The position numbers were made by a program, and so were the translations under genes. The notes under the pieces were generated by a model that searched no databases, was not told the DNA's origin, and saw nothing but the letters and a program-made list of their open reading frames with translations. From positions 6,870-70,869 of the forward strand of contig CAYXSX010000001.1 of NCBI GenBank assembly GCA_964467925.1: a stretch of 64,000 bases of DNA, written 5' to 3'. Position 1 is the stretch's first letter, and every line of letters starts with the position of its first letter. Shown piece by piece: positions 28,300 through 61,469 of this stretch. Source of the stretch: an uncultured Pseudobdellovibrionaceae bacterium (GTDB lineage: Bacteria; Pseudomonadota; Alphaproteobacteria; Micavibrionales; Micavibrionaceae).

Positions 28300-30966
28300 A
28301 TGAGAACCGACACACCCAAAACAATTTATCTGAAAGATTACAAACCTTATCCCTTCGCTATCGGGCATCTGGATTTAACGTTCCAGATTCACGACGGCCA
28401 TACGGATGTATCCGCGCGCAGCGCCATTCGTAAAACCGATCAGACGGCAACGGAAATTTTCCTCAACGGTGAAGATTTGGAGCTTCTTTCCATCGAGATA
28501 GATGGTCGGGAGATCAACGATTACCGCCGTGACGAACACGGACTTTACATCCCCTGCCCGGCGGAAGGCTTTACTCTGGAGATCAAAACCCGCATCAAGC
28601 CGGAGGAAAATACGCGCCTCGAAGGTCTGTATAAGTCCGGGGATACTTACTGTACACAATGCGAAGCCGAAGGGTTCCGGCGGATTACATTTTATCCCGA
28701 CCGCCCCGATGTGATGACCACATTCACTACGCGCATAGAGGCGGACAAAAAATTTCCCGTACTTCTGGGCAACGGCAACCGTGTGGATGGCGGAGAGCTG
28801 GAAAACGGGCGTCATTACACAATCTGGGAAGATCCCTGGCCCAAACCCTGCTACCTGTTCGCGCTGGTGGCCGGAGACCTCACCCATATTCACGATACGT
28901 ACAAAACCGCATCAGACCGTCTGGTCGATCTGTATATTTTCGTACGGCCCGGAGATGAAAGCCAGTGCGCCCACGCGATGGAATCGCTCAAAAAATCCAT
29001 GAAGTGGGACGAGGACACATACGGGCTGGTTTACGACCTTGACGTATTCAATATTGTCGCGGTCAGTGACTTCAACATGGGGGCGATGGAAAATAAGTCG
29101 CTCAACATTTTCAACACCGCTCTTGTATTGGCGCATCAAGACACCGCTACGGATCAAGATTTTATGCGCGTGGAAAGCGTGATCGCGCATGAATATTTCC
29201 ACAACTGGAGCGGTAACCGCGTGACCTGCCGCGACTGGTTCCAGCTTTCACTCAAAGAGGGTCTAACCGTTTTCCGCGATCAGGAATTCTCAAGCGATAT
29301 GAATTCCCGCGCCGTGCAACGCATCGACGACGTGCAGCATTTGCGCAAATTACAATTTGCCGAGGATGCCGGGCCGCTCGCCCATCCCATCCGCCCGGAC
29401 AATTATATCGAGATCAATAATTTCTATACCATGACGGTGTACGAGAAAGGCGCCGAAGTCATCCGCATGTTCCGCACCCTGATGGGGCCGGAAAAATACC
29501 GCAAGGCGACCGATCTTTATTTCTCCCGCCATGACGGCCATGCGGCAACCTGCGAAGACTGGATTAAATGCATGGAAGAGGCTTCCGGCTTTGATTTCAG
29601 CCAGTTTCGCCTGTGGTACAGCCAGGCTGGCACGCCCGAGGTCACATTCAAAGGCGTACACGACATTAAGAACGGCGTATACAGCATTGAACTTTCACAA
29701 AAAAATCCCGATACACCCGGTCAGAAGGACAAGAAGCCCATGCACATTCCCGTGGCCATCGGCCTTGTGGATGAACATGGGGAAGACGTTGTGGAAGATG
29801 TGCTTCATCTAACTGAAGAAAAACAGGAATTTAAATTCGAAAACATATCCACAAAGGTGGTGCCGTCGGTGTTACGGAATTTCTCGGCTCCGGTGAAGCT
29901 CCGTACGTCTCTTGAAAATGCGGAATTGTCGTTTTTGATGCTGCATGACAAAGACGGATTTAATCGCTGGGAAGCCGGGCAGCAATTATATTTGCACATG
30001 CTGAATAACATGATTGATTCCTCCCCCTCTCGTCATCCTGAAGGGTCGAAGACCCTGAAGGATCTTCCCTCAACCGAACGAGATTCTTCAGCGCAAGCGC
30101 TTCAGGATGACATGTATAAATTCATGGAGACGATCGGCAAATTGATCGAACAGGGCATGGAGGCTGAAACCGATAAGGCGTTGCTCGCCCGCTCCCTCAC
30201 CCCGCCCGATATCGCCGCGATCGGTCAGAGCCGGGACGAAGTCGATCCCGATGCGATTTACAAGGCACGCCAAAGCTTGCTCGCCGCGATTAAACGCGAA
30301 CACCGCAAGGCACTCGATAAATTATATACCTCGTGCGAAGATAAGGGCGACTTCAGTATTACGCCGGAAGCCATGGGTGCCCGGGCGCTGCGCGCCGCCC
30401 TGCTTCGCATTTTGACCGCCACGCACGGCACTGGTTGTGCCAAGCTTTCCAAAGCGCATTATGATAGCGCGGATAACATGACCGACCGTATCGCGGCGCT
30501 TTCCGTACTGACCGACATCAACCAGCCGCAGCGTGAAGAGGCTTTCGATGATTTTTATGGACGGTATAAAAACTACCCACTGGTTGTAGATAAGTATTTC
30601 TCGTTGCAGGCTGTAGCAGTGCGTTCAGACATCATAGAATGCCTTAACAAACTCAAACATCATCCTGATTTTAATATCAAAAACCCAAACCGTGTGCGCT
30701 CGCTATACGCCGCTTTTGCCATGAACAACCTAGTCGGTTTCCATGCTGTGGACGGATCGGGGTATAAGTTTTTGGGCGATGCGATTGTAGAGCTCAATTC
30801 TATCAACCCACAGATTGCCGCGCGGCTGCTTACCCCTCTTCGCGAATGGCGCCGCTATACGTCGGATCGCCGCGAAAAGATGCAGGCCACGCTGGAACGC
30901 ATTCTTGAAACACCGAATCTTAGTCCCGATGTCTTTGAAATCGCCAGCAAAAGCCTTAAATCCTGA
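28300..30966 (+). CDS. pepN: Aminopeptidase N (M1 family)
   Basis: GAMEN and HEYFHNWSGNRVT...LKEG zinc motifs; 888 aa. Carries an in-frame palindromic insert at 30031-30111. Confidence 0.95.
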   Translation: MRTDTPKTIYLKDYKPYPFAIGHLDLTFQIHDGHTDVSARSAIRKTDQTATEIFLNGEDLELLSIEIDGREINDYRRDEHGLYIPCPAEGFTLEIKTRIKPEENTRLEGLYKSGDTYCTQCEAEGFRRITFYPDRPDVMTTFTTRIEADKKFPVLLGNGNRVDGGELENGRHYTIWEDPWPKPCYLFALVAGDLTHIHDTYKTASDRLVDLYIFVRPGDESQCAHAMESLKKSMKWDEDTYGLVYDLDVFNIVAVSDFNMGAMENKSLNIFNTALVLAHQDTATDQDFMRVESVIAHEYFHNWSGNRVTCRDWFQLSLKEGLTVFRDQEFSSDMNSRAVQRIDDVQHLRKLQFAEDAGPLAHPIRPDNYIEINNFYTMTVYEKGAEVIRMFRTLMGPEKYRKATDLYFSRHDGHAATCEDWIKCMEEASGFDFSQFRLWYSQAGTPEVTFKGVHDIKNGVYSIELSQKNPDTPGQKDKKPMHIPVAIGLVDEHGEDVVEDVLHLTEEKQEFKFENISTKVVPSVLRNFSAPVKLRTSLENAELSFLMLHDKDGFNRWEAGQQLYLHMLNNMIDSSPSRHPEGSKTLKDLPSTERDSSAQALQDDMYKFMETIGKLIEQGMEAETDKALLARSLTPPDIAAIGQSRDEVDPDAIYKARQSLLAAIKREHRKALDKLYTSCEDKGDFSITPEAMGARALRAALLRILTATHGTGCAKLSKAHYDSADNMTDRIAALSVLTDINQPQREEAFDDFYGRYKNYPLVVDKYFSLQAVAVRSDIIECLNKLKHHPDFNIKNPNRVRSLYAAFAMNNLVGFHAVDGSGYKFLGDAIVELNSINPQIAARLLTPLREWRRYTSDRREKMQATLERILETPNLSPDVFEIASKSLKS
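30031..30111. repeat. Palindromic MITE/REP-like element, type 1 (GTCATCCTGAAG ends), inside pepN
   Basis: Perfect 12-bp terminal inverted repeats. Inner inverted repeat TGAAGGATCT/AGATTCTTCA. By eye, about three-quarters identical to the reverse complement of 47011-47089. Confidence 0.8.
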
Positions 30967-31654
30967 TTTTTCGCTAGAGGAGGAACTCGGCGTTCCCGTT
31001 TGCGGCATAGACGAGGTCGGGCGCGGGCCGCTAGCCGGGCCGGTTGTCGCCGCGTGCGTTTTCATTCCACCGGAGGTGCGCAAGTCGGAATGGGTCGCCC
31101 ATATCCGCGACAGTAAAAAGCTTTCCGAAAAGAAGCTGGAAATGTTATTCGAGGCCATCACCGCACATTGCGTCTACGGTATTGCCGAAATCGCTCCGCA
31201 AGAGATCGACAGGATCAATATTTTACAGGCGGCCTTAAAAGCGATGAGCTTTTCTTTCTCATCATTCCTGCGCATGCAGGAATCCATTTCAATCAACTCA
31301 CCAAGCTCATCCATGGATCCCGGCCTTCGCCGGGATGACATTGTGGCTTTAGTCGATGGAAACCGCTGTCCTGAATTACCCTGCCGAAGCATGGCCGTCG
31401 TTAAAGGCGACGGCAAATCGAAATCCATCGCCGCGGCCTCAATTATCGCCAAGGTCACCCGCGACCGGATCATGCGAAAATTAGCGACAGAATTCCCACA
31501 TTACGGCTGGGAAAGCAATGTTGGCTATCCGTCAAAGGCACACCGGGACGCCATTCTCATCCACGGTATTACGCCCCACCACCGCCGTTCTTTTGCTCCG
31601 GTGAAAAATTTTTTAACGGAACAGCCTCGAGTCGAAACCCTGACTCAGCCTTAG
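30929..31654 (+). CDS. rnhB: Ribonuclease HII
   Basis: GIDEVGRGPLAGPVV, DSKKLS, VDGNRCP, KGDGKS and HRRSFAPV motifs. Start uncertain (ATG 30929 overlaps the pepN end). Carries an in-frame palindromic insert. Confidence 0.9.
   Translation: MSLKSPAKALNPDFSLEEELGVPVCGIDEVGRGPLAGPVVAACVFIPPEVRKSEWVAHIRDSKKLSEKKLEMLFEAITAHCVYGIAEIAPQEIDRINILQAALKAMSFSFSSFLRMQESISINSPSSSMDPGLRRDDIVALVDGNRCPELPCRSMAVVKGDGKSKSIAAASIIAKVTRDRIMRKLATEFPHYGWESNVGYPSKAHRDAILIHGITPHHRRSFAPVKNFLTEQPRVETLTQP
31261..31339. repeat. Palindromic MITE/REP-like element, type 3 (TCATTCCTGCG...CGCCGGGATGAC), inside rnhB
   Basis: Hairpins CCTGCGCATGCAGG and CCCGGCCTTCGCCGGG near the ends. Inner inverted repeat GGAATCCAT/ATGGATCC. 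Same architecture as 32874-32990. Confidence 0.7.
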
Positions 31655-31739
31655 TTTTAAGTCGAAGACTCATCCATAGAGTCCTGACTCTGTTACAAGA
31701 ATCGTTATTTTCGTCTTGACGGCGAATCGGTTTTGACTC
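31629..31739. promoter_or_regulatory. Cluster of 8 GANTC (CcrM target) sites upstream of ccrM
   Basis: Sites at 31629, 31642, 31667, 31679, 31686, 31699, 31724 and 31735. Six lie in the 119-bp rnhB-ccrM spacer. Confidence 0.6.
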
Positions 31740-31743
31740 ATGA

Positions 31744-32856
<1,113 letters not shown>

Positions 32857-32873
32857 CCCTCTGCCTTTCCGGC

Positions 32874-32990
32874 GTCCCCGCGAAAGCGGGGATTATACTG
32901 CCGGAATCCAGAAAAGACAGCCAGCGAAGCTGGCTGACACGTGGATCCCGTTCGTGTAAGTTCTGCTTCGCAGAACACCAACGGGATGAC
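32874..32990. repeat. Palindromic element, type 3, long variant
   Basis: Ends GTCCCCGCGAAAGCGGGGAT ... CAACGGGATGAC. Inner GGAATCCA/GTGGATCC. Extra central hairpin CAGCCAGCGAAGCTGGCTG. Confidence 0.65.
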
Positions 32991-33001
32991 GAAGGAGTAT
33001 T

Positions 33002-33352
33002 ATGAACCGGATATTTATCAAGGAACTGGAACTTCAGGCCTCTATCGGCATTTATGAGCGCGAAAAACAAGCGCCGCAGCGCATTATGGTTTCCGTCTTT
33101 ATGGATGTCGAAAATGACCGTGCCGCCGAAAGTGACACTATAGAAGACACCGTGTCTTACGAGGAAGTCATCGACACGATTAAAAAAATCGCTGCCGCGC
33201 GGCATTACAATCTGGTCGAAAGCCTTGCCGAAGAAATTGCGACTGCCTGCCTTGCCGATAAACGTGTGTTAAATATAGAACTGGAAATCACCAAGCCCGA
33301 TATTTTCAAAGACGCCGCCGGAGTGGGAATAAAAATTGTAAGAAAAAATTAG
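33002..33352 (+). CDS. folB: Dihydroneopterin aldolase
   Basis: 116 aa. IFIKELELQASIGIYEREK and DTVSYEEV are typical FolB segments. Confidence 0.85.
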   Translation: MNRIFIKELELQASIGIYEREKQAPQRIMVSVFMDVENDRAAESDTIEDTVSYEEVIDTIKKIAAARHYNLVESLAEEIATACLADKRVLNIELEITKPDIFKDAAGVGIKIVRKN

Positions 33353-33374
33353 TGCCCTTAATGTACTTAGTGTT

Positions 33375-34436
33375 TCAAAACTTTTTAAGGCGCAAAACTT
33401 TCTTAAACAGCGTAGGAAAACCGACCACAGTCAAATCATCCACCGGATGCCAAAAATAATCGTCGCCGAACTCTTCTTTCGCCGCGCCTGATTGTAAAAT
33501 CAAGGTAAGATCAAAATGCGTAAAACTATGCAGCACTTTTTCCTGATGGGTTTTTAGCCCCGGCGGCGCGGCAAAACTTTCATGCGATTTACTCCAATCA
33601 CTCGTTGGAAATCCGGTCATCCCCCCTAACATTCCCTTTTCCGGTCGCCTGTGGAGAAGCACATTCCCTATCCCGTCCTCAATCCAGTATACCATCCCCT
33701 CTCGCTGCGGCTTTACGCCCTTGTCTTTCTTACGCGGCAGCTCTTCCGCAATGCCAAGCGCCCGCCCCTCGCAAAACTCCGCTACGGGGCAAAGCATGCA
33801 TTTGGGCGATTTAGGCGTGCAAATACCTGCCCCCATATCCATCAAAGCCTGCGCCAGATCACCCGGTCTCTCCGCATTTTCAAAAAACGGCCCCGCCAGT
33901 TTTTTCAACTCCGGCTTTATGTCCGGCAATGTGCCCTGCACCGCGAAAAGCCGCGCCATCACGCGCTCGATATTGCCGTCCACTACCGTCGCCCGCTCGC
34001 CAAAGGCAATGGCCGCAATCGCCGCCGAGGTATAATCGCCGATCCCGGGCAGTTTTTTTAACTCAGCCTGCGTATCAGGAAAAACGCCGCCCATTTCCCC
34101 CGCCACTACTTTCGCGCATTTATGCAGGTTCCGCGCCCGCGCGTAATAGCCCAGCCCCGCCCATTCGCGCATAACTTCCTCGGACGGCGCAGCCGCCAAA
34201 TCCTCCATCTTAGGCCAAAGCGTCAAAAACCTCAGAAAATAGGGAATAACCGCATTGACCACCGTTTGCTGGAGCATAATTTCCGAAAGCCATACCTTAT
34301 AAGGCTCCTGCAATGCCCCCGGCGCGGCCCGCCAGGGCAATTTGCGGTGCTCGCGGTCGTACCAGTCCAGAATTTTCCCATGGAAAGTTTTTATGGTATC
34401 ATCTGATGTCTTGAGCTTTGGGGCAGCATTTGCCAT
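33375..34436 (-). CDS. mutY: A/G-specific adenine DNA glycosylase MutY
   Basis: HhH-GPD (LPGIGDYTSAAIAAIAF) and the 4Fe-4S cluster loop CTPKSPKCMLCPVAEFC, plus a C-terminal NUDIX-like domain. ATG 34436 preferred over TTG 34454. Confidence 0.9.
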   Translation of the reverse strand: MANAAPKLKTSDDTIKTFHGKILDWYDREHRKLPWRAAPGALQEPYKVWLSEIMLQQTVVNAVIPYFLRFLTLWPKMEDLAAAPSEEVMREWAGLGYYARARNLHKCAKVVAGEMGGVFPDTQAELKKLPGIGDYTSAAIAAIAFGERATVVDGNIERVMARLFAVQGTLPDIKPELKKLAGPFFENAERPGDLAQALMDMGAGICTPKSPKCMLCPVAEFCEGRALGIAEELPRKKDKGVKPQREGMVYWIEDGIGNVLLHRRPEKGMLGGMTGFPTSDWSKSHESFAAPPGLKTHQEKVLHSFTHFDLTLILQSGAAKEEFGDDYFWHPVDDLTVVGFPTLFKKVLRLKKF

Positions 34437-34468
34437 GTTGCTTACTTCTATCAATAATCGAGGTTTTC

Positions 34469-34939
34469 ATGCGCCCATTATCAGAGGCATCCGCCCGCGT
34501 CGCAGGCCAGAACTTCAAGCGCAAATATGTCGCGCTGGGGCGCATCGTCAGCCATTGGTCAGATATAGTCGGCGAAGAGCTGGCGTGCAAGGCGCAACCG
34601 GTTAAAATCCACTACCGCAAGTACGAAAAATCCAAAGAGCCGCAGGCCTCCCTCGACATCGCCGTTTCCAGTGCCGATGCCACGCTGATGCACTACCGCA
34701 AAGACCTTATTCTCGAGCGCATTAATCAGATTTTCGGCGAACGCTGGATCTCCGCCATCCGCTTTATTAATACGCCCGCAAACCAGATAGCGGCCAAAGC
34801 CTTTAAAAAGCCGGAAAAACCGCTCAGCGATGATGAAAAACAATCGCTTAATTCCCTGCTGGAAAATATCGTGGATCATGATATAAAGGCGCGGCTTGAG
34901 AGCCTTGGCTCCGAAATTATCAAAGAAGACAGAAGATAA
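34469..34939 (+). CDS. DUF721 (DciA-like) domain protein
   Basis: The pattern W..IVGEELA...P....(basic)...L.I.V.S...A..L...K..I..RIN is typical of DUF721. Divergent from mutY, as in many alphaproteobacteria. Confidence 0.7.
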   Translation: MRPLSEASARVAGQNFKRKYVALGRIVSHWSDIVGEELACKAQPVKIHYRKYEKSKEPQASLDIAVSSADATLMHYRKDLILERINQIFGERWISAIRFINTPANQIAAKAFKKPEKPLSDDEKQSLNSLLENIVDHDIKARLESLGSEIIKEDRR

Positions 34940-34943
34940 AATC

Positions 34944-35510
34944 ATGAAAGTAACAGCGATCACCCTGCGTGCGGGACACGTCATTGAATATAACGGCAAG
35001 CTTTGCGTTGTCGTGAAAAACGAAATTATCCAGCCCGGCAAGGGCAACTCCGTAGCTCAGGTGGAACTCCGCGACATCCGCACGGGCAACAAAGATAACG
35101 TGCGTTACCGCACACAGGAAACCGTAGAGCGCCTGAGACTGGAACAGGATGAATACCAGTATCTGTACACCGATGCGGACGGCATCAACCTGATGCACCA
35201 ACAGACATTCGAACAGATTTCCATCAACCCCGAAGTTTTCGGTGATATGGCCGCCTATCTTCAGGAAGGGATGATCGTCGAGGTTGAAACTTTCGAGGGC
35301 GAGCCGCTTGGCGTTAAAATGCCCGACAGCGCGGTTTATACGATTGTCGAGGCCGAGCCCGTCGTAAAGGGTCAGACGGCAACAACTTCATATAAGCCCG
35401 CCATTCTTGATAACGGCGTGCGCATTATGGTTCCCCCGCATATCGAAAACGGTACGCGCGTAGTGGTGAAAATCGAGGAAGGCGTTTACGTCGAAAGAGC
35501 GAAGGATTAG
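34944..35510 (+). CDS. efp: Elongation factor P
   Basis: 188 aa. QPGKGNSVAQVELRDIRTG loop and three OB/KOW-like domains. Confidence 0.95.
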   Translation: MKVTAITLRAGHVIEYNGKLCVVVKNEIIQPGKGNSVAQVELRDIRTGNKDNVRYRTQETVERLRLEQDEYQYLYTDADGINLMHQQTFEQISINPEVFGDMAAYLQEGMIVEVETFEGEPLGVKMPDSAVYTIVEAEPVVKGQTATTSYKPAILDNGVRIMVPPHIENGTRVVVKIEEGVYVERAKD

Positions 35511-35515
35511 ATTTT

Positions 35516-36331
35516 ATGAGCGCTTCCACCTCCCCCAATATGCAGGTCATGATCAAGGCCGCCGAAAAAGCGGCCCGTTCGCTTGTCCGCGACTTTGGCG
35601 AGGTGGAGAATCTTCAGGTCTCTACCAAGGGCCCCGGCGATTTCGTCAGCGCAGCGGATAAACGCTCCGAAGAAATTATTTTCGAAGAACTTTCCCGCGC
35701 CCGCCCCGAACATGCCTTCCTGATGGAAGAAAGCGGAACCAAGGGGCCGGAAAACGCCAAGGGCCGTTTTATCATCGACCCGCTGGACGGCACGCATAAC
35801 TTCCTGCACGGCATTCCGCACTGGTGTATTTCCATCGCGCTAGAGGAAGGCGGCGAGGTCATTGCCGGACTGGTTTACGATCCCGTTAAAAACGACATGT
35901 TCACCGCCGAAAAGGGACAGGGCGCTTATTTAAGCCGCCGAAAGCGTTTAAGAGTTTCGGGCCGCACCGAGCCGCTGGCCTCCATCATCGCGTTGGGCGA
36001 GCCGCGCCGCACGGTCAAGGGCTCAGCTGATGTGTTCTTGAAAGAACATCTCGCCGTACAAAATACAGGCGCCAGCCAGCGCCGCTTCGGTGCTTCTGCG
36101 CTTGACCTGTCCTATGTCGCTGCGGGGAAATGCGAAGCCTATTGGGAACGCGCTCTTGCGCCGTGGGATATTGCCGCGGGTTGCCTTATTGTGAAGGAAG
36201 CGGGCGGGTTTGTCTGCGACATGGATGACGACCGCAAGAACCCGCTTGAAACGGGCAACGTTCTGGCCGGAAACGAAGCGCTTTACGGCCTTCTGAAAAA
36301 GGCGATCAGAGGCGTAAAACAGGCCGCCTGA
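35516..36331 (+). CDS. suhB: Inositol monophosphatase family protein (SuhB-like)
   Basis: Motifs FLMEESG, IDPLDGTHNF and WDIAAG. Confidence 0.9.
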   Translation: MSASTSPNMQVMIKAAEKAARSLVRDFGEVENLQVSTKGPGDFVSAADKRSEEIIFEELSRARPEHAFLMEESGTKGPENAKGRFIIDPLDGTHNFLHGIPHWCISIALEEGGEVIAGLVYDPVKNDMFTAEKGQGAYLSRRKRLRVSGRTEPLASIIALGEPRRTVKGSADVFLKEHLAVQNTGASQRRFGASALDLSYVAAGKCEAYWERALAPWDIAAGCLIVKEAGGFVCDMDDDRKNPLETGNVLAGNEALYGLLKKAIRGVKQAA

Positions 36332-38076: not shown

Positions 38077-38082
38077 CCATAC

Positions 38083-44203: not shown

Positions 44204-44287
44204 CGTCATTGCGAGGAGCGCCAGCGACGCGGCAATCTAGGATGACGCTTGTATCAGAAGATTGCTTCGCTTACGCTCGCAATGACG
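44204..44287. repeat. Palindromic MITE/REP-like element, type 2 (CGTCATTGCGAG ends)
   Basis: Perfect 12-bp terminal inverted repeats CGTCATTGCGAG/CTCGCAATGACG. Inner GCAATC/GATTGC. Homologous to 61378-61469. Confidence 0.8.
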
Positions 44288-45587: not shown

Positions 45588-45703
45588 GTCATCCTGAGTG
45601 GAGCGACCCCGGACTTTGATCCGGGGGAGCGCAATCGAAGGATCTCATAAAACCGTAAGGAGATCCTTCGACTTCGGCACTCCGTGCCTGCGCTCAGGAT
45701 AAC
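45588..45703. repeat. Palindromic element, type 1 long variant (GTCATCCTGAG ... CTCAGGATAAC)
   Basis: Imperfect terminal inverted repeats. Arm hairpins CCCCGGACTTTGATCCGGGG and GGCACTCCGTGCC. Central inverted repeat CGAAGGATCTC/GAGATCCTTCG. Confidence 0.75.
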
Positions 45704-47010: not shown

Positions 47011-47089
47011 GTCATCCTGAAGCGCTTGCGCTGAAGGATCTCAAGCGATTGAAACTAGATCCTTCAGGGCTAAAGCCCTTCAGGATGAC
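47011..47089. repeat. Palindromic MITE/REP-like element, type 1
   Basis: Perfect 12-bp ends GTCATCCTGAAG/CTTCAGGATGAC. Inner TGAAGGATCT/AGATCCTTCA. Inverted orientation relative to the pepN copy. Confidence 0.85.
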
Positions 47090-48876: not shown

Positions 48877-50247
48877 ATGCGCAAATTCTTCATCACCACT
48901 GTTATGACCATCGCTCTTGTTTCCGGCACTTTGCATGCGCCGGTTCAGGCACAGGAGCCCCGCACGGCCGGAACCCAGCCGGAAGCGGAGGATGAAGAAG
49001 CCCGCAGCTACAGCGACACATACCGCCAGCTCAATTTATTCGGCGATGTTTTCGAGCGGGTTCGCGCGCAATATGTAGACGAGCTGGAAGACAAGGAGCT
49101 GGTTGAAAAGGCGATCAACGGGCTTTTGTCCGGCCTCGATCCGCACTCCTCATACCTCGACGAAGAGCATTTCGCCGATATGCAGATTCAAACCAAGGGC
49201 GAATTCGGCGGCCTTGGTATCGAAATCACCATGGAAAACGGGCTGGTCAAGGTCGTTTCTCCCATTGACGACACGCCCGCCTTCCGTGCCGGGATCGAGG
49301 CGGGCGACCTGATCGTTGAAATCGACGGCGAGCCTGTCATGGGCCTGACCTTAAGCGAGTCGGTAGAAAAGATGCGCGGCAAGGTCGGTACGGATATCGA
49401 TATCGTCGTGCGCCGCGAAAGCGAGCCGGAGCCTCTGGAATTTACCATTACGCGCGACATCATCCATATCCGCGCGGTGCGTCACCGTGTGGAAGGCAAC
49501 GCCGGATATATCCGTATCACCACCTTTAACCAGAACACCGAAGAAGGCGTGGAAAAAGCCATCGAGGAAATCAGGGAAGAGCTTGGCGATAAGCTAGTCG
49601 GCTATGTGATCGATCTGCGTAACAACCCCGGCGGATTGTTGGATCAGGCGATTGCGGTATCCGATGCGTTCCTTGATCAGGGGGAAATCGTTTCAACGCG
49701 CGGGCGTCATAAACGCGACACCAAACGCGATAACGCCCATAGCGGCGATCTGGCAGAAGGCTTGCCTCTGGTCGTGCTGATTAACGGCGGATCGGCTTCG
49801 GCATCCGAAATTGTTGCTGGAGCTCTCCAAGACCATAAACGCGCGATTGTTTTAGGCACGAAATCTTTCGGCAAGGGATCGGTACAGACCGTTATTCCGC
49901 TGCCCGGACATGGCGCGATGCGCCTGACGACCGCGCGGTATTATACTCCGTCCGGGCGTTCCATTCAGGCGACTGGCATCGAACCCGATATCATCGTTGA
50001 ACCCGCCAAGGTGGAGACGATCAAGTTCAAGCGCCTGAGCGAAAACGATTTGCGCGGCGCACTGGACCGTAAGGAAGAAGACGAGAAGCCGAAAAAAGAT
50101 GAAGGCAAGAAAAAGCCCAAGAAAGGCGAGGTGGAAGTTTCCGTTACTGAAGAAGAGCCCGTGGATTATCAATTATCCCGCGCGCTAGATCTTCTGAACG
50201 GATTGTCACTTTATAAAGGCAATATTGTCGAACATTCCGAACCCTAA
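48877..50247 (+). CDS. ctpA: Carboxy-terminal processing protease (S41)
   Basis: PDZ domain (GGLGIEI, PAFRAGIEAGDLIVEIDG) and catalytic GSASASEI ... KSFGKGSVQ. Confidence 0.9.
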   Translation: MRKFFITTVMTIALVSGTLHAPVQAQEPRTAGTQPEAEDEEARSYSDTYRQLNLFGDVFERVRAQYVDELEDKELVEKAINGLLSGLDPHSSYLDEEHFADMQIQTKGEFGGLGIEITMENGLVKVVSPIDDTPAFRAGIEAGDLIVEIDGEPVMGLTLSESVEKMRGKVGTDIDIVVRRESEPEPLEFTITRDIIHIRAVRHRVEGNAGYIRITTFNQNTEEGVEKAIEEIREELGDKLVGYVIDLRNNPGGLLDQAIAVSDAFLDQGEIVSTRGRHKRDTKRDNAHSGDLAEGLPLVVLINGGSASASEIVAGALQDHKRAIVLGTKSFGKGSVQTVIPLPGHGAMRLTTARYYTPSGRSIQATGIEPDIIVEPAKVETIKFKRLSENDLRGALDRKEEDEKPKKDEGKKKPKKGEVEVSVTEEEPVDYQLSRALDLLNGLSLYKGNIVEHSEP

Positions 50248-52050: not shown

Positions 52051-52151
52051 TCCCCTCCCTAAGGGAGGGGATCAAGGGGAGGGTTTAGAATCGGTGTTTA
52101 AAGGCAACATACAACACCCCCACCCTAACCCTCCCCCTCAAGGGGGAGGGA
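52051..52151. repeat. G/C-tract palindromic element (CCCCTCCC / GGGAGGGG hairpins)
   Basis: Hairpin TCCCCTCCCTAAGGGAGGGGA at the left and CCCTCCCCCTCAAGGGGGAGGG at the right. AAGGGGAGGGTT pairs with AACCCTCCCC. Lies between the convergent rppH and tolB. Confidence 0.75.
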
Positions 52152-53531: not shown

Positions 53532-54458
53532 TTAAAGCATTTCACGCGGATCAAATCTTATGACGGTGACCTTCCAGCTTTCATATTTATCCGGCGGCAA
53601 GGCCAAGGGCGAACAACGGGGATTACGCAGAGCCCGCAAAGCCGCATCGGCGGCAGCGCGGTAATGCGGGTTGGCGGCGTTCAACCCCTCGTTAATCACG
53701 CGGGCGGAATTTACCGTGCGGTCGGGATTAACGATCACGCGAACCTCGACCACCAGATTTTCGGCGTATTTTGCACCGGCCAGAACGTTCCAGCATTTTG
53801 CCATCTGCGCGCGCAACGCCTCTTCCTCACTCACCGTAATACGGGCGGCCACGGGTGCCTGCGGCGAAGGTTTATCGGGCTGCGATTCCAGTTCCGGTGA
53901 ATCGTTTTTCGCAACTGATTCATCTAGGTTCGGCGTCAGGTTTTTCAACAGCGTCTGGAAATCATTCGCTTTCTCTTTCGGCTTTTCCGGTTTTTTGGTC
54001 GCCGGCTTTGGAGCGGGCGGGGGCGGTTTTTTCTGCTCTTCCGGTTTCTTTATATCTTTTCGCTCAAGCGGTTCAGGCGCGGGCGGCGGCGGCACATCCT
54101 CCACCGCTTCGGAAGCATCGGGAGCCTTGGGCGAGCTTAAATCGGGAGGCGCCTCCGCGGTCATGGGCGGGGGCTTATACGCCTCGGGCGGTGGCGGTTC
54201 CGTTTCTTGCGGCGGTTGTTCTTTGGGCATTTCGGTGAATGACGGTACGCGGTCGGTTTGGGTAAGCTCGTCAATATCGGCGATTTCCACGCTGATCGGA
54301 TTTGAAATAGTCATAGGTTCTTTTTTGACAAAGGGCATGCCCATGGCAAAAACCAGAACGATAAAAAGGTGAAAGACGCCCGAGCCGAGCAAAGCCTTTA
54401 GCGAAAAATTCGGAGCTTCTCTTAAATCGAGACGAGATCTGAGCGCCGGGGCGTGCAT
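53532..54458 (-). CDS. tolA: TolA-like protein (TM anchor, P/K/E-rich linker, TonB_C-like domain)
   Basis: Position between tolR and tolB. Single TM helix, proline/lysine-rich spacer and a C-terminal globular domain. Confidence 0.8.
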   Translation of the reverse strand: MHAPALRSRLDLREAPNFSLKALLGSGVFHLFIVLVFAMGMPFVKKEPMTISNPISVEIADIDELTQTDRVPSFTEMPKEQPPQETEPPPPEAYKPPPMTAEAPPDLSSPKAPDASEAVEDVPPPPAPEPLERKDIKKPEEQKKPPPPAPKPATKKPEKPKEKANDFQTLLKNLTPNLDESVAKNDSPELESQPDKPSPQAPVAARITVSEEEALRAQMAKCWNVLAGAKYAENLVVEVRVIVNPDRTVNSARVINEGLNAANPHYRAAADAALRALRNPRCSPLALPPDKYESWKVTVIRFDPREML

Positions 54459-54465
54459 TTGCGGC

Positions 54466-54915
54466 CTACCTTCCGCCCCCGGGTTCAGAGATCAGGGCGA
54501 CCTTGTTAAACCCGGCCCCATTTACGGCGCCGATAACCTGCATCACCATGCCGTAGGAAATGGCCTGATCACCGCGGATATAGATGCGCCGGTCCACCTG
54601 CCCTTGCGTCATCGCGGCCAGAAGCGGCACAAGGCGCTCGCGCTTGACCTCGCTTTCGCCGATATAAATAACGCCATCAGCCGTAACAGTAATCTCGATG
54701 GGTTTGTTGTCTTCGTCGCTGATCGCCTTGGCTTCGGTATTGGGAAGATCGACAGGAACTCCGGCGGTCAAAAGCGGCGCTGCCACCATAAAGACGATCA
54801 AAAGCACCAGCATCACATCGACAAACGGGGTGACGTTGATCTCCGCCATCGGACGGTAAGAACCGCCCGAACGCCGCCCGCGTGATCGCGTTTTTGTGGT
54901 GAGTGTCGCCGCCAT
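54466..54915 (-). CDS. tolR: Tol-Pal system protein TolR (ExbD family)
   Basis: MAEINVTPFVDVMLVLLIVFM motif with the conserved Asp. Confidence 0.9.
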   Translation of the reverse strand: MAATLTTKTRSRGRRSGGSYRPMAEINVTPFVDVMLVLLIVFMVAAPLLTAGVPVDLPNTEAKAISDEDNKPIEITVTADGVIYIGESEVKRERLVPLLAAMTQGQVDRRIYIRGDQAISYGMVMQVIGAVNGAGFNKVALISEPGGGR

Positions 54916-54919
54916 TTAT

Positions 54920-55669
<750 letters not shown>

Positions 55670-56080
55670 TTACGTTTCCAGAAATTGTTCAAATTCGTTT
55701 TTGACCTTTTCCGGTAACCGCACCGGCTTTAAGGTTTTACTATCTACGCATACGATAACGACCTGCATGTCACAAATGACCTCGCCGTCGCGCTCCAGGC
55801 ATTGATGCATGATGAAACTAGTATTTTTCAGGGCGGAAATCGAGGTCTTTAATGAACATAAATCATCTAAATGCGCGGTCTTAAGATAATCGATTTCGAC
55901 ATGGCGCACTACGAAAATCATTCCCAGTTCTTTTGAAAGCGTGGAATTTTCATGACCCAAGCTGCGCAAGAACTCGGTGCGGCCACGCTCGGCGAATTTC
56001 AGGTAATTAGCATGGTACACGACGCCGCCGGCATCGGTATCCTCGTAATATATGCGTACGGGAAGGGTGTGGGTGGTCAT
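55670..56080 (-). CDS. ybgC: Tol-Pal-associated acyl-CoA thioesterase YbgC
   Basis: Hot-dog fold with N-terminal [19 protein letters not shown]. Confidence 0.9.
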
Positions 56081-57111
56081 TCGTCAAACAAATTTTCTTG
56101 AGAATTCACTTTAACTTCGATCCCTAAATATTTGAAACCTTTAGAAGAAATACATCTGCCGCGAGGGGTTCTTTGCACCAATCCCTGCTGCATCAAATAA
56201 GGCTCTATCACGTCTTCGATCATATCGCGTTGCTCCGATAACGCGGCGGCGAGGGTTTCGACACCCACGGGCCCGCCGCCGTAATTTTCAGCGATACAGG
56301 CCATGTAACGCCGGTCCATCGAATCGAGGCCGCTGGCATCGACATCAAGACGGCGCAGGGCCTCATCGACTTTTTCTTTTGTGATCTCGCCCGATCCGGA
56401 TGAGAAATCACGAACACGCCTTGTCAAACGCCCGGCGATACGGGGAGTTCCCCGCGAGCGTTTTGCCACTTCAAGCGCGCCCTCTTCGCTGAGGTTCATT
56501 TTCAAAATTCCGGCGCTGCGCTTGACGATAAGAGCGAGCTCCGCATCTTCGTAAAACTCGAGCCGCAAGGGAATACCGAAACGATCACGCAAGGGGTTGG
56601 TCAAAAGGCCGGAACGCGTGGTTGCACCCACAAGCGTAAAGGGCACGAGGTCGATCTGGACAGAGCGGGCCGCAGGCCCCTCCCCGATAATCAGGTCGAG
56701 CTTGCGGTCCTCCATGGCCGGATACAGGATTTCCTCCACCGCCGGATTGAGGCGGTGAATTTCATCAATAAAGAGAACGTCATTCGGCTCCAGATTGGTC
56801 AGCAGAGCGGCCAGATCGCCGGACTTCGCGATAACGGGGCCTGAAGTGGCGCGGAAACCGACGCCGAGTTCCTTGGCGACAATCTGCGCTAAGGTGGTTT
56901 TACCAAGGCCGGGCGGGCCGAAAAGCAGGACGTGATCCATTGCCTCGCCGCGGGACCGGGCGGCCTCCACGAAAACACGCAAATTCGCGCGCAAACCCTC
57001 CTGCCCGATAAAGGCATCAAGCGTATCAGGGCGCAGAGGGTTTTCCTCCACCCCCTCGAATTCATGAGGTTCGCGATCAAGGTCGGTGTTTTTCATTGGC
57101 TCAATACTCAT
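56077..57111 (-). CDS. ruvB: Holliday junction branch migration helicase RuvB
   Basis: Walker [10 protein letters not shown], Walker B LFIDEIH and the sensor region. Confidence 0.97.
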
Positions 57112-57728
57112 GCACTTAGCTCCTTGAGCGCGGCGCGGATAATATCTTGCAAATTATCATTGGCCCTTGCTTTCGCCGCCATGACGGCCTGAAACGCCTG
57201 CGCGCGCGGGTAACCGAGATTGATGAGGGCGGAGACGGCGTCCTGATCGACGCTGCCCGCCTCCTCATTTCCGGCGGCGATGTCCTTGTACGAAACCGGA
57301 GCGGCAGCACCCTGCCCCATGGCAAGGCTTCCGGCCTTGTCTTTAAGCTCGGTCACAATGCGCACGGCCAGTTTGGGTCCGACGCCATCGGCCTGACGGA
57401 TCGCGTTCTGATCCTGTGAGGCGATAATCATCGGCAGCTTATCCGCCGGGCACACGGCCAGAATAGCCAGCCCGGCCTTCGCGCCCACCCCCTGCACGGA
57501 TGTAAGAAGTTTAAACCATTGCTGCTCGGCGGCGTCGGCAAAACCGTAAAGTGTGATCGCATCTTCGCGCACCTGCGTTTCGATCAAAAGACTGGCCGGG
57601 TCGCCCTTTTGCCCGATGCGGCCCAACGTCCGGCGGCTGGCATGCACCAGATAGCCCACCCCGCCGACATCGAGTATCAGATGCCCGTCCGCGAAAGAAT
57701 CAATAATGCCGGAAAGTTTGCCAATCAT
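57108..57728 (-). CDS. ruvA: Holliday junction DNA helicase RuvA
   Basis: MIGKLSG start and HhH motifs ([31 protein letters not shown]). Confidence 0.95.
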
Positions 57729-57755
57729 TTGTGTCTTATGATAAACGATTTCCCC

Positions 57756-58559
57756 ATGATGTTAAGTACTGAGTTCAATCCGACTGCAGATATTCAAAAG
57801 ATTTTGAAGGAAGCCCCCTTTTGCACCAGAAATTCCTTTAGAGTATTGTTGGCACAAGCTGACTGGACACATGAGCGGCAGACAAGAATAATCCATCTTT
57901 CGGGCGATGGAAAATGGGCTATCAAGATTTTTTCCGCCGCACAGCGATATCATGAGGGAGAATTTGCTCGGTTTTGTCAACAAGCCCCCTCTGCGATTGC
58001 GTCGCCGCATATCGTAAAAGTTCCATACATTGGCCGTCTTCAGGGCGGCGATTTCTTTATGGTAATGGAAGCATTGGAAGCTCTGGACGCGCTTCATCGT
58101 AGATCCAGCCTGCACAAAACCGTTAGAGATATCCAAACAGCATATGGCGATGAGGTTTATGATTCAAAAAGCCAAAAGTATAAAACGCCGTCCACTTCGG
58201 AACGGCGCGACATTTTAGAACAGTTGGACAGCAACCATCCTGCGCTCATGGAGGCTTTTCGCGCTATATTACGGCATGCCGCCATGCAATTTTTTCACAA
58301 TAGATACGGGCCGCGGAAATGTGTAATGCCGTATCTGGATTTAAAATTAGACAACGTTATGAAACGTAAAAACGAAAACGGTTCTTACGACCTGGTCTTC
58401 ATAGATCAGTTTTTTGGCGGCGGCATCCAAATACTCGCCCCTTTCGTACAGGAAACCTGGAAGATTTTCGGCATTGAACTTGACGATATCTGGAACAATC
58501 CTCCCCCTTTAATAGTGCAGGCACGGCAAAACAGGTTTTTACCTGAACCTGCTTATTGA
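57756..58559 (+). CDS. Orphan protein with protein-kinase-like motifs (267 aa)
   Basis: Kinase-like order of motifs: SGDGKWAIKIF (beta3 Lys), HEGEF (alphaC Glu), FFMVMEAL (hinge), YLDLKLDNVM (catalytic loop D-x-K-x-x-N), VFIDQFFGG (DFG-like). AT-rich with several AGA/TTA/ATA codons. Opposite strand to the ruv genes. Confidence 0.6.
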   Translation: MMLSTEFNPTADIQKILKEAPFCTRNSFRVLLAQADWTHERQTRIIHLSGDGKWAIKIFSAAQRYHEGEFARFCQQAPSAIASPHIVKVPYIGRLQGGDFFMVMEALEALDALHRRSSLHKTVRDIQTAYGDEVYDSKSQKYKTPSTSERRDILEQLDSNHPALMEAFRAILRHAAMQFFHNRYGPRKCVMPYLDLKLDNVMKRKNENGSYDLVFIDQFFGGGIQILAPFVQETWKIFGIELDDIWNNPPPLIVQARQNRFLPEPAY

Positions 58560-59017
58560 TGATGCGCATGGGTAATGGCCACGGCGAGCGCATCCGCCTC
58601 GTCTTCGCTGGGGCGGCCGGAGGCGGGAAGCAGAGTTTTAATCATCATGCCGATTTGTTCCTTGCCCGCATGGCCCGTGCCGACGATGGATTTTTTGACC
58701 TTGTTGGCAGAATATTCCCCCACTGCAAGTCCGTAAAGCGCCGGAACACTAAGAACCACGCCGCGCGCCTGCCCCAGTTTCAAGGCAGATGCCGGATTCT
58801 GGTTGACGAAAGTTTCCTCCACCGCCGCGCTATCGGGATTGTGCAGTTTAATTACATCCGCAAGTCCGGCGTGCAGCGCGGCAAGGCGCGCAGGCAAAGG
58901 GTCCGCAGCGTTTGTTTTGACCAGCCCGCACGCCACGAATTGCAGCCTGCTCCCTTGTGAAATAATTATCCCCCAGCCGGTTTTTTGCAGGCCGGGATCA
59001 ATGCCGAGAATCTTCAT
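58553..59017 (-). CDS. ruvC: Crossover junction endodeoxyribonuclease RuvC
   Basis: MKILGIDPGL start with catalytic acidic residues (EETFVN, DEADALAVAI). Confidence 0.95.
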   Translation of the reverse strand: MKILGIDPGLQKTGWGIIISQGSRLQFVACGLVKTNAADPLPARLAALHAGLADVIKLHNPDSAAVEETFVNQNPASALKLGQARGVVLSVPALYGLAVGEYSANKVKKSIVGTGHAGKEQIGMMIKTLLPASGRPSEDEADALAVAITHAHHQ

Positions 59018-59074
59018 GTGATTAATGTAACAAAGTTATTGCAAAAAACAGAATTAATGATTATCTTTTAAATT

Positions 59075-59332
59075 ATGACAAAGAAAATTTCAGTCGGCGA
59101 TCTTGTTCTGATTAAAGCTAGGTTTAGAGACCACAAATCTAGCTCACAGCGTCCGGATCTTAATTTTAGATTAGCTTTTAAAGTTATTGCCACCGACGAA
59201 GAAGGCATCTTGCACATTGCCAACCCCGGGGAAGTTTTATTACAGCAGGACTCTAAAGAACCCATTTCTGCAGGCTTAGGGGCAGTAGAAAAACTAGATT
59301 TTCAAGGTTTAGAAATTATAGGCCACGCCTAA
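59075..59332 (+). CDS. Hypothetical AT-rich orphan (85 aa)
   Basis: Clean ORF in a visibly AT-rich spacer between ruvC and yebC. Rare codons (AGA, TTA, CTA, ATA). No recognisable domain. Confidence 0.45.
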   Translation: MTKKISVGDLVLIKARFRDHKSSSQRPDLNFRLAFKVIATDEEGILHIANPGEVLLQQDSKEPISAGLGAVEKLDFQGLEIIGHA

Positions 59333-59361
59333 CCAGCCGCCATCCCGTCTTCGCCTTTCGG

Positions 59362-60117
59362 CTAGGACGCGGCGAGCAATTTTTCCATCACTTCGTCATC
59401 AAGCTCGAGATTGGCTGTAACGGTCTGAACGTCGTCATCTTCTTCGAGGGTGTCGATTAGTTTTAGAATCGTTTCCGCCTGTTCCTCGCTTACTTCGGAC
59501 ATTACATTGGGTTTCCAGATAAGGCCCGCCTTTTGCGGCTCGCCATATTGTCCCTCAAGCGCCTTTTGCACGGCGGCGAAATCTGTAACCTCGCAAGTAA
59601 TAATGTGATCTTCCTCGTCACTTTCAACATTTGTGGCCCCAGCTTCGAGAGCGGCCTCAAACATATCTTCATCGCTGGCGACGGATTTGGGGTAAATGAT
59701 TTCGCCGATGCGGTCGAACATGAAATTCACGCTGCCGCTTTCACCCAGATTGCCGCCATTTTTGGTGAAAATGGAGCGAACCTCTCCGGCCGTGCGGTTA
59801 CGGTTATCGGTCAGAGCTTCGACGATAATCGCCACGCCGCCGGGGCCGTAGCCTTCGTAACGGACTTCCTCGTAATTCTCTCCCTCGCCGCCGCCGATGC
59901 CCTTTTGGATGGCCTTTTCAATACCGTCTTTGGGCATGGATTGCCCGCGCGCGGTGGCAATGGCAAGGCGCAGACGCGGGTTCATATCAGGATCGCCACC
60001 ACCCAGTTTGGCCGCCACATATATCTCGCGCCCCAGTTTGGAAAATTGTTTGGCGCGCACCGCATCGGCGCGCCCTTTTCTATGTTTGATGTTTGCCCAT
60101 TTGGAATGACCGGCCAT
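59362..60117 (-). CDS. yebC: YebC/PmpR family DNA-binding transcriptional regulator
   Basis: [15 protein letters not shown] start; 251 aa. Confidence 0.95.
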
Positions 60118-60261
60118 CGTAATTTATCCTTTTAATGTGTAATCAAGCGGGCACACTATACAAATTCCCCCGCATAATGGAAATATGAAATAATTGCGCC
60201 TAAGCTATGAAAAAATATGCTAAAATCGACATAACGACACTAAGACGGCCCTGTAAATTTT

Positions 60262-60831
60262 ATGAGCTATACATTCGACCATCTCAACGTTCTTGTCATT
60301 GAAGACAACAAGCCGGTTCTGGATCTGGCCAATTCGATATTGCTGGCCTTTGGCGTGGGCGAGGTTTTGACCGCGCGCGACGGCAAAACCGGGTTCGAGG
60401 TGTTTTGTGAAAAAAACCCGGATATCGTCATTTCGGACTGGATGATGCAGCCCATCGACGGTATTGCCCTGACCCGGCTCATAAGGGAAGACGCGGCATC
60501 GCCCAACCGTTTCGTGCCCGTGATTTTGATGACGGGCGTAAGCGAGCGCGACAAGGTCATGCATGCGCGCGATGCGGGCGTGACGGAATTTTTGCTTAAA
60601 CCGTTTAACGCGCGAGAAATGTACCGCCGGATCGAGCAAGTCATCGAGCGCCCGCGCCAGTTCGTGCGCACGGAAGAGTTTTTCGGCCCCGACCGCAGAC
60701 GGCTGCGCGGCAATCCGTACCCCGGAGACAAACGACGTTTTACCGACGTGCCGGAAGAGCCGTTCCGCCGGAATATCGATTTCAATACGGATTTGAAAGT
60801 CAGACCGCCGGAAGACCGGACAAAACGATAG
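60262..60831 (+). CDS. CheY-like single-domain response regulator with Arg-rich C-terminal extension
   Basis: REC motifs (VLVIEDN, IVISDWMM, MTGV, LLKPF) followed by about 60 aa containing FFGPDRRRLRG and KRRF. Confidence 0.9.
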   Translation: MSYTFDHLNVLVIEDNKPVLDLANSILLAFGVGEVLTARDGKTGFEVFCEKNPDIVISDWMMQPIDGIALTRLIREDAASPNRFVPVILMTGVSERDKVMHARDAGVTEFLLKPFNAREMYRRIEQVIERPRQFVRTEEFFGPDRRRLRGNPYPGDKRRFTDVPEEPFRRNIDFNTDLKVRPPEDRTKR

Positions 60832-60837
60832 GGATTT

Positions 60838-61368
60838 ATGATGGCAGAACAGGGACATTTCAACAGAAAGCCAAGACGCAGAGCAGAATTTATCCGCCCG
60901 CCGCATCCGCTGAAGGCCAAGGTAGGATCGGGCGGATTGAGCGAGGAGATTATTTCCAAGGCGCAAAAATTGCTGGAGAGCAGCGCGGCCGACTTTGCTC
61001 CATTGGCCAACGCGCATCTGGACGATCTAACCAAAGCCATGCAGATCGCACGTGAAAATAACGACCCGGCAAATAACGAAGCCTTGATTGAAGGCATTCT
61101 TTACCCCGCGATGCAGCTTAAGGCCAATGGCGGGCTATTCAACTTTCCGCTTGTGACAAGAACCGCCAAAGGGATGGTGGAGTTCCTCGAGGTTATCGAT
61201 GTACTCGATGCCGAAGCGATCGAGATTGTCGCCGGGTTTCATGCCACCATCAAGGCGGTCATCATGGGCCGCATTTCCGGCGACGGCGGGGAAAAAGGCC
61301 GCGAACTGGTCGATACGTTCGACAAGGCTTGCCGCTGGTATTTCGAGAAACAGAAGAAGCAGCGGTGA
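60838..61368 (+). CDS. Hypothetical helical protein, Hpt-like but lacking the canonical His
   Basis: The segment LIEGILYPAMQLKANGGLFNFPLVTRTAKGMVEFLE mirrors the Hpt pattern aHxLKGxaxxxGxxxlxxxaxxlE, with Met at the His position. 7 nt after the REC gene, with an AGGGA RBS. Confidence 0.55.
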   Translation: MMAEQGHFNRKPRRRAEFIRPPHPLKAKVGSGGLSEEIISKAQKLLESSAADFAPLANAHLDDLTKAMQIARENNDPANNEALIEGILYPAMQLKANGGLFNFPLVTRTAKGMVEFLEVIDVLDAEAIEIVAGFHATIKAVIMGRISGDGGEKGRELVDTFDKACRWYFEKQKKQR

Positions 61369-61377
61369 TGTTTTTAC

Positions 61378-61469
61378 CGTCATTGCGAGGCCTGTTAAGG
61401 CCGAAGCAATCTAGGGATACAAACGCTATTTCTGGATTGCTTCGTCGGCTTCGCCTCCTCGCAATGACG
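61378..61469. repeat. Palindromic MITE/REP-like element, type 2
   Basis: Ends CGTCATTGCGAGG/CCTCGCAATGACG. Inner AAGCAATC/GATTGCTT. Lies between convergent genes. Confidence 0.85.

Follow-up and report, generated by a model that had tools for sequence, protein, structure and literature searches.

CGTC-tagged palindromic doublets in a Micavibrio-like alphaproteobacterium, two of them read in frame within pepN and rnhB

Repetitive extragenic palindromic (REP) sequences with a CGTC tag (CGTC-1 to CGTC-4) are defined by a CGTC, TGTC or CCTC tag, an AT-opened stem of 8–9 bp, a loop of 4–5 nt and a CCA tail, and occur mostly as head-to-head dimers with spacers of about 20–100 bp (Di Nocera, De Gregorio & Rocco 2013, PMC3733652). 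Their hosts are mainly Alphaproteobacteria, with Micavibrio aeruginosavorus named as a CGTC-1 host; CGTC-1 is the dRS3 repeat of Neisseria, and CGTC-1 and CGTC-4 of R. conorii are RPE-6 and RPE-4, respectively (PMC3733652). Intragenic dimers encode 20–30 residues, no dedicated transposase is known for these repeats and no association with transposases was found (PMC3733652). Here we analyse palindromic elements in a stretch of 64,000 nucleotides (the window) of contig CAYXSX010000001.1 (assembly GCA_964467925.1), from an uncultured, Micavibrio-like alphaproteobacterium. Seven of these elements are very probably head-to-head dimers of CGTC-tagged REPs, the repeats also known as dRS3/NTS, SRM and RPE-4/RPE-6.

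The same hairpin was described as NTS/SRM by Chenal et al. 2025 (PMC11893778), who reported its genomic association with small cd10448 GIY-YIG genes (ssnA). Ssn enzymes bind the hairpin only as single-stranded DNA (ssDNA) and cut it a few nucleotides upstream, cleavage depending on the GTC and binding on the trailing C; an arrangement NTS–ssnA–NTS resembling an insertion sequence (IS) was remarked on, and in N. meningitidis a role of NTS in transformation was demonstrated, Ssn restricting transforming ssDNA (PMC11893778). The terms 'RPE', 'MITE' and 'in-frame' do not occur in the main text of that paper. Rickettsia palindromic elements (RPEs; Ogata et al. 2000), as later papers describe them, are palindromic repeats found in frame in unrelated housekeeping genes (PMC10969869, PMC3733652), a phenomenon summarised in a 2024 review (PMC10969869). 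Our link between these elements and RPEs is that PMC3733652 equates RPE-6 with CGTC-1 and RPE-4 with CGTC-4.

An initial annotation of the window listed eight palindromic elements, and all eight were confirmed with their coordinates. Folded as ssDNA, each was more stable than every one of its 200 dinucleotide shuffles (z = −4.1 to −8.9; 0/200 equal). The annotation had parsed them as terminal inverted repeats (TIRs), a GC hairpin inside each end and an inner inverted repeat; two stem-loops, each (C/T)GTC-AT...AT-C, are the better parse. Each of the seven elements consists of two hairpins on opposite strands, plus on the left and minus on the right, with the tags facing outward. Read on its own strand, a half-element has the form (C/T)GTC - AT(Y)(S)C ... 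G(S)(R)AT - C, in which the CGTC or TGTC tag stays unpaired, A-T and T-A pairs open the stem, the G+C-rich tip shows compensatory variation, and a C comes directly after the stem. Because the two inverted copies of the tagged hairpin point their tags outward, they give rise, as a by-product, to what looks like a GTCAT...ATGAC terminal inverted repeat. Tag, AT-opened stem and trailing C are found in 10 strict and 4 decayed halves (n = 14), and the ten strict ones all follow GTC-AT...AT-C. The tag has decayed in two halves: it is CATC at 31260, where the related genome L001 has CGTC, and TGTT in the right half at 45703. The first C of the tail is invariant; the tail is CCA in both halves of the rnhB element, at the GGAATCCAG motif within the 32874 element and at 61435 (−), and CTT, CTC or CTA in the other halves. 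Spacers between halves are about 15–50 nt long in the seven elements.

Types 1 and 2 are two-tier hairpins: the outer stem is ATCC/GGAT or ATTGC/GCAAT, next comes either an internal loop or a tandem G.A/A.G mismatch, and a short G+C mini-hairpin follows. Type-1 doublets lie inside pepN (30031–30111; left hairpin 30032–30064 (+), CGTC; right hairpin 30082–30111 (−), TGTC) and between rsfS and rlmH (47011–47089; hairpins 47011–47040 (+) and 47058–47089 (−), both TGTC), the latter being the heterodimer of the 30031 element in reversed orientation. A long type-1 variant separates proA from nadD (45588–45703); its left half (45588–45644 (+), TGTC) contains a nested hairpin and its right half (about 45661–45703 (−)) is decayed (GTTAT). 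Type-2 doublets, in which both halves are tagged CGTC, are found between atpF and proA (44204–44287; hairpins 44205–44237 (+) and 44260–44286 (−)) and between two convergent genes, 60838–61368 (+) and a ymdB-like gene at 61473–62291 (−) (element 61378–61469; hairpins 61379–61411 (+) and 61435–61468 (−)). Type-3 halves have plain 8-bp stems, 4-nt loops and the CCA tail (ATTCCTGC-GCAT-GCAGGAAT and ATCCCGGC-GAAG-GCCGGGAT), and the two hairpins of a type-3 doublet are unlike each other, sharing only GTCAT(Y)C. One such CGTC-1-like doublet lies inside rnhB (31260–31339, called the 31261 element; left half 31264–31283 with the tag decayed to CATC; right half 31316–31339 (−), TGTC, with an 8-bp stem, a 4-nt loop and the tail CCA). 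The other is a composite doublet between ccrM and folB (32874–32990) with CGTC tags on both halves, of which the left is a decayed NTS-like GTC-CCCGCGAAAGCGGGG-AT and the right (32944–32990 (−)) has an extra nested hairpin. Thus five doublets are intergenic (ccrM–folB, atpF–proA, proA–nadD, rsfS–rlmH and the convergent pair; genes assigned by Pfam).

Global alignments of the elements, scored against shuffles, support, for these seven, the earlier proposal that the GTCAT-ended, REP-like palindromes make up a single superfamily; all seven score above the shuffled controls. The 30031 and 47011 elements are alike at z = 15, in opposite orientation, and the 44204 and 61378 elements at z = 12.5; the long variant 45588 resembles type 1 at z of about 6.7, and comparisons across types give z = 3–5. 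Between the two type-3 copies (31261 and 32874) the likeness is weak (z = 3.5). The G/C-tract element at 52051–52151 scores about 0 against every other element and is terminator-like, so that its inclusion in the family does not stand; on these z-scores seven elements form one superfamily with 52051 outside. Perfect terminal inverted repeats of 11–13 nt that start from GTCAT occur at 30032/30111, 44205/44286, 47011/47089 and 61379/61468, and in the remaining GTCAT..ATGAC pairs of the window the match goes no further than the 5–6 nt set by the search itself. A generic detector of half-elements (GTCAT followed by a 5-nt closing complement and C), looser than the published SRM regular expression, found 13 sites in the window, where shuffles gave 1.5 ± 1.1. 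The elements account for ten of these sites, and the three at 1–30 kb are not convincing. No Rfam family matched any GTCAT element at the gathering threshold or at E ≤ 1.

By their sequence features these doublets belong to the CGTC REPs. They share the CGTC or TGTC tag, the A-T/T-A start of the stem, the C-initial tail, the head-to-head arrangement with short spacers, the Micavibrio-type alphaproteobacterial host, the location 3′ of open reading frames (ORFs) and the occasional in-frame dimer, and the type-3 halves fit CGTC-1 in size, with a stem of 8 bp, a loop of 4 nt and the CCA tail. The published form is not that of types 1 and 2: they have 11–13 or more pairs, outside the 8–9 bp stem and 4–5 nt loop, they contain the tandem G.A/A.G mismatch or internal loop and the variable G+C mini-hairpin, their tail is C-T-N instead of CCA, and the phyla in which the exact type-1 hairpin was found far outnumber the five listed for the family in 2013. 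With NTS/SRM the elements share the GTC directly 5′ and the C directly 3′ of the palindrome, which are the determinants of cleavage and binding. NTS/SRM hairpins are present in many copies in Proteobacteria that live as symbionts or predators; the present window contains seven doublets in 64 kb. The likeness to RPEs is insertion in frame in housekeeping genes, with a peptide added in a tolerated loop; the differences are the host, a Micavibrio-like bacterium of 52% G+C rather than Rickettsia, and the length of the elements (78–117 bp compared with about 150 bp for RPE-1).

The elements had been placed mostly between co-directional or convergent genes, which holds for six of the eight; the 30031 and 31261 elements lie within coding sequence. 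Both are read through in frame, which was missed earlier, by the ORFs of pepN (28300–30966 (+); aminopeptidase N, 888 aa, E = 2.5e-253 to E. coli PepN structures) and rnhB (30929–31654 (+); RNase HII, 241 aa), and both are insertions relative to solved homologue structures and orthologues. In PepN, where the 30031 element translates as RHPEGSKTLKDLPSTERDSSAQALQDD, the insert occupies 33 residues compared with 8–9 in relatives (net +25; orthologues are about 863–866 aa long). In RNase HII it likewise occupies 33 residues, compared with 12 in relatives (net +21), between the KAM helix and the ALVDGN strand. An AlphaFold2 model of RNase HII retains a confident core (predicted local distance difference test (pLDDT) > 90) and represents the insert as a low-confidence loop: residue blocks 121–130 and 131–140, which span most of the insert, average 57 and 76, residues 126–129 fall below 50, and the low-confidence segment sits just ahead of the strand with the DGN motif. 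Copies of the superfamily are also found in frame in LeuRS, MnmE and GuaA of other genomes, and two PepN orthologues (P0028 and P0037) have independent in-frame insertions at other positions.

Comparison with relatives revealed that these sites are polymorphic. The best comparator is a 1.13-Mb scaffold (L202; ENA ERZ23486764) that is 88–91% identical to the window over 20.9–41.4 kb in perfect synteny and is without all three elements of that stretch. The pepN site is 27 nt long in L202 (EGSKDVCPR) and 102 nt in the window, the rnhB site 36 nt and 99 nt, and at ccrM/folB the overlapping ATGA of L202, with no element, corresponds to about 148 nt in the window. Conversely, L202 carries a doublet of its own between rplU and rpmA (4255–4347; 93 nt compared with 27 nt in the window, both flanks 100% identical). 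The 30031 element is absent from PepN of L202 (88% identical), of L001 and of all other aligned orthologues; a 2.6-kb Logan contig (L201; SRR15635858) is 100% identical to the window at pepN. In two more distant syntenic relatives (L121 and L136; ProA 61–67% identical), the proA–nadD gap is 16–25 nt compared with 168 nt in the window, and the rsfS–rlmH gap of L121 is about 0 nt compared with 139 nt. Empty sites at orthologous loci, which the initial annotation had proposed to look for, thus exist in L202 (three), L121 and L136. At all seven elements the longest flanking direct repeat is 0–2 nt, so that no target-site duplication of ≥3 nt is present. Insertion polymorphism of this kind indicates recent activity of the repeats in this Micavibrio-like alphaproteobacterium. 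The heterodimer seen at 30031 and 47011, with the left tip CGCTTGCG, the right tip GGGCTNAAGCCC and a spacer of about 16–21 nt recurs in other Micavibrio metagenome-assembled genomes (MAGs), and the unrelated flanking sequences lead us to take these copies as lying at different loci, so that the doublet appears to spread as a unit.

At ccrM–folB the inserted block (32857–33001) replaces the ancestral overlapping ATGA stop/start and brings a TGA stop for ccrM and an AAGGAG Shine–Dalgarno sequence 7 nt before the folB ATG. Pyrimidine-rich stretches make up the 10–15 nt on the 5′ side of the tag (TCCTCCCCCTCT, TTTCTTTCTC and CCCTCTGCCTTTCC, at window positions 30019–30030, 31250–31259 and 32857–32873), and because they are missing at the empty sites they seem to arrive with the element; at an unrelated locus, L094 at about 7320–7331 reads tccctccccctt|GTCATCC. 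The pyrimidine-rich flank could mark the region of an Ssn cut or a target preference. A reading of the C/T-rich left flank in pepN as an inverted copy of the ancestral GAGGGGAG was dropped as over-reading, as it depends on which relative is chosen as ancestral. At greater divergence, presence/absence differences involve mixed CGTC hairpin clusters, with three to six hairpins where genes of the window abut or overlap (L094 (Micavibrio sp. UBA5703) 6737–7503 compared with window 56056–56158; L091 (MAG OFTM68) 2926–4370 compared with window position about 62292).

The type-1 hairpin is very broadly distributed. A scan for the type-1 half (GTCATCCTGAAG-N6-16-CTGAAGRATC) in one genome per GTDB species returned at least 119 stretches from many phyla, including many from Micavibrio MAGs, which bears out the expectation of further copies outside the window. 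Among the matches listed are Acidobacteriota, Omnitrophota, Planctomycetota, Bacillota, Bacteroidota, Fibrobacterota, Patescibacteria, Aquificota, Chloroflexota, Gemmatimonadota, Nitrospinota, and Gamma- and Alphaproteobacteria, and across them 22 fixed bases of the hairpin are preserved. The inner segment, which the search leaves free, forms a mean of 1.8 contiguous closing pairs compared with 0.57 in shuffles (highest of 500 shuffles, 0.87), and in the matches listed C-G, G-C, A-T and T-A interchange at the same inner-stem positions. A same-type inverted partner within 160 nt accompanies 28 of the 125 matches listed and is lacking for 97; since most copies listed from other genomes are unpaired, what is conserved is the hairpin rather than a pair of TIRs. 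Almost every copy in Micavibrio-like genomes is part of a doublet, with the same subtypes at other loci, and in 80 loci (511 kb) of more distant alphaproteobacterial relatives the half-element pattern occurs at background level only. A Coprothermobacterota MAG (L016) has three identical type-1 hairpins every 108 nt with identical 5′ flanks (4222–4468), which is a tandem array rather than dispersed copies. Small GIY-YIG genes (PF01541) are found in 4 of the 119 loci listed: the exact type-1 hairpin flanks the gene on both sides in two (L035 and L117), repeating the hairpin–ssn–hairpin order of the NTS/SRM–Ssn system, and adjoins it in two others (L070 and L044).

Taken together, we consider it likely that the seven elements are recently active, selfish CGTC REP doublets with an Ssn-type nuclease as their presumed driver. 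Spread driven by Ssn itself we propose tentatively, by analogy, as a possibility somewhat short of even. The whole doublet would spread as a unit, as a non-autonomous selfish repeat, and a non-autonomous nature, as already supposed, is supported within the limits of the window. The gene for the proposed Ssn-type GIY-YIG nuclease would lie outside the window; the enzyme would recognise each half in ssDNA, for example at replication forks or in incoming DNA, and would nick a few nucleotides 5′ of the tag; the nicks would bracket the doublet because its halves lie on opposite strands with the tags outward. Copying or repair of the nick might then carry the doublet to new sites, along with a few flanking bases rich in pyrimidines, the driver being the enzyme or the repair of its nicks, comparable to the action of RAYT (REP-associated tyrosine transposase) on REPINs (REP doublets forming hairpins). 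Copies would persist only where they are harmless: 3′ of genes, in the gaps of convergent gene pairs, or as in-frame inserts where a surface loop of the protein tolerates them, in the window those of PepN and RNase HII.

Several observations weigh against this proposal. No GIY-YIG gene was found in the window by a motif regular expression on the six-frame translation or by phmmer with a GIY-YIG protein, and phmmer found none in the fetched Micavibrio-like or related loci; in this the setting differs from that of NTS/SRM and Ssn. A search for Ssn-homologous proteins returned 6,208 relatives, none attributable to the source lineage, a result that is uninformative. Among the closest 120 of these 6,208 Ssn-like GIY-YIG proteins, most are on very short contigs (0.5–5 kb), as expected if the gene and the hairpins beside it are multi-copy and so break assemblies. 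To our knowledge, nobody has demonstrated mobilisation of repeats by Ssn. The published SRM motif (HGTCWYN(0-2)YYVSBRHN(0-5)WNVSBRGN(0-2)RNCYNB; PMC11893778) fits 1 of the 14 halves, that at 31313–31340 (−) in rnhB, compared with 0.32 expected in shuffles; the other 13 halves are too long or bulged, and types 1 and 2 misfit the published stem and loop lengths. All four polymorphic sites also lose 24–36 nt of target (replaced segments at window 30019–30120, 31247–31345 and 32857–33001 and at L202 4255–4347), with sequence beyond the replaced target 88–100% identical. The target is thus replaced rather than interrupted, which is not what models of simple insertion, clean cut-and-paste or copy-in predict. 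Finally, the rnhB element is present in the more distant L001, where the hairpins match at 53 of 55 positions and the genes are about 75% identical, and absent from the closer L202. In 20 aligned orthologues the same RNase HII loop holds type-1-like, type-2-like and several 'SSRAxSRDL...RDD' doublets, and is empty in three. Simple vertical descent accounts for this less well than does a loop that was hit repeatedly or in which an existing element was replaced.

A more specific variant of the CGTC REP reading, which we regard as unlikely, is that the two-tier hairpins of types 1 and 2 form a branch of CGTC/SRM that has not been described before, spread by an Ssn-started, homing-like process of nick and repair. 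Such a process would replace a target of 24–36 nt and would hit the same protein loops repeatedly, such as that of RNase HII, in which many alphaproteobacterial orthologues have doublets of differing type. If true, homing-like spread would explain mechanistically why RPEs are inserted in frame, a puzzle that is 25 years old.

Three other explanations are weaker than the CGTC REP reading. The first, a host function that keeps the elements in place, either by stabilising mRNA 3′ ends or attenuating between genes of an operon, or as NTS-like marks by which an Ssn nuclease restricts or modulates incoming ssDNA, seems to us quite improbable. It would suit the strong folds, the location of five of the seven just 3′ of a stop codon between co-directional or convergent genes, the near-identity of the rnhB hairpins (53 of 55 positions) in two genomes with only about 75% identity in rnhB, and the demonstrated role of NTS in transformation of N. 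meningitidis (PMC11893778). However, sites are gained and lost between genomes about 10% apart, so that no individual copy is conserved, and the conserved rnhB hairpins equally fit young, independent insertions at a hot spot. A terminator role was rejected for the GTCAT elements: none is followed by a T-run or has a terminator-like call, and for the two copies within coding sequence such a role is impossible.

Mobilisation by RAYT, which would make the elements REPINs, is very unlikely. The REPIN/RAYT system comprises GTAG-tagged REP doublets and a RAYT that is an IS200/IS605-like (HUH) tyrosine transposase. Our elements resemble it in having two inverted hairpins and a spacer as a non-autonomous replicating unit that spreads as a doublet, in lacking target-site duplications and in their extragenic location 3′ of genes. 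Their tag, however, is CGTC or TGTC, whereas RAYT-associated REPs are defined by GTAG; the hairpin was seen to flank genes for GIY-YIG nucleases and not for Y1 transposases; and CGTC REPs show no association with transposases (PMC3733652). A Pfam scan of the ten ORFs beside the intergenic elements returned housekeeping genes, with no search aimed at Y1 transposases made. The remaining alternative, that the elements are classical MITEs (miniature transposable elements with inverted repeats), deletion derivatives of an IS moved by a DDE transposase through GTCAT terminal inverted repeats, is barely credible and largely refuted: the perfect 11–13-nt TIRs, the size of 78–117 bp, the several copies and the lack of a transposase nearby would all agree with it, but no flanking direct repeat of ≥3 nt exists at any of the seven, most hairpins listed from other genomes (97/125) stand without a same-type inverted partner, type-3 doublets combine two different hairpins that have only GTCAT(Y)C in common, and the roughly 1.5 Mb of loci fetched showed no parent IS having such ends. 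Of the original description as GTCAT-ended, MITE- or REP-like palindromes, the REP-like part therefore stands and the MITE part falls with the missing target-site duplication.

The eighth element, outside the family, comprises two G/C-tract hairpins between convergent genes (52051–52151; CCCCTCCC-TAA-GGGAGGGG and CCCTCCCCCT-CAA-GGGGGAGGG). On the minus strand its left hairpin is followed by the T-run AATTTTTTAT and is the top terminator-like match in the region; the element looks most simply like a terminator region. A gene for a CcrM-type N6-adenine methyltransferase (N6_N4_Mtase and RAMA domains; 31774–32856) lies between the rnhB and ccrM–folB elements. A link between CcrM and GANTC sites in the elements was considered and dropped: GAATC/GATTC occurs only in the 30031 type-1 copy and in type 3, and is absent from the 47011 copy and from type 2, so that, with GANTC in some element cores only, no CcrM link is established. 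The window also contains a 6S RNA gene (62887–63081 (−); Rfam RF00013, 52.6 bits) and a tRNA-Ser(TGA) gene (19346–19435 (+)). A sub-threshold match to Rickettsia sRNA47 in Rfam (49771–49889 (−); 30.5 bits, gathering 60; E = 2.6e-4), inside a plus-strand ORF (48877–50247), is probably chance or a conserved coding segment.

The repeat family itself is ordinary and already described; what is new is the host genome and the two longer hairpin variants. The main value of the finding is therefore correct annotation: the 80–120 bp blocks should not be annotated as small ORFs, small RNAs or MITEs, and the extra 21–25 residues in PepN and RNase HII are repeat-encoded. Beyond this, the elements offer three leads on how CGTC/SRM repeats move. 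The four differences by gain or loss are a clean, datable set of recent events in which the target is replaced and no target-site duplication arises; a single loop of RNase HII holds different repeat types in many orthologues; and an identical 22-base hairpin frame extends from the candidate phyla radiation (Patescibacteria) to Acidobacteriota, sometimes flanking a GIY-YIG gene. These leads tie the literature on RPEs and CGTC REPs to the 2025 work on Ssn nucleases.

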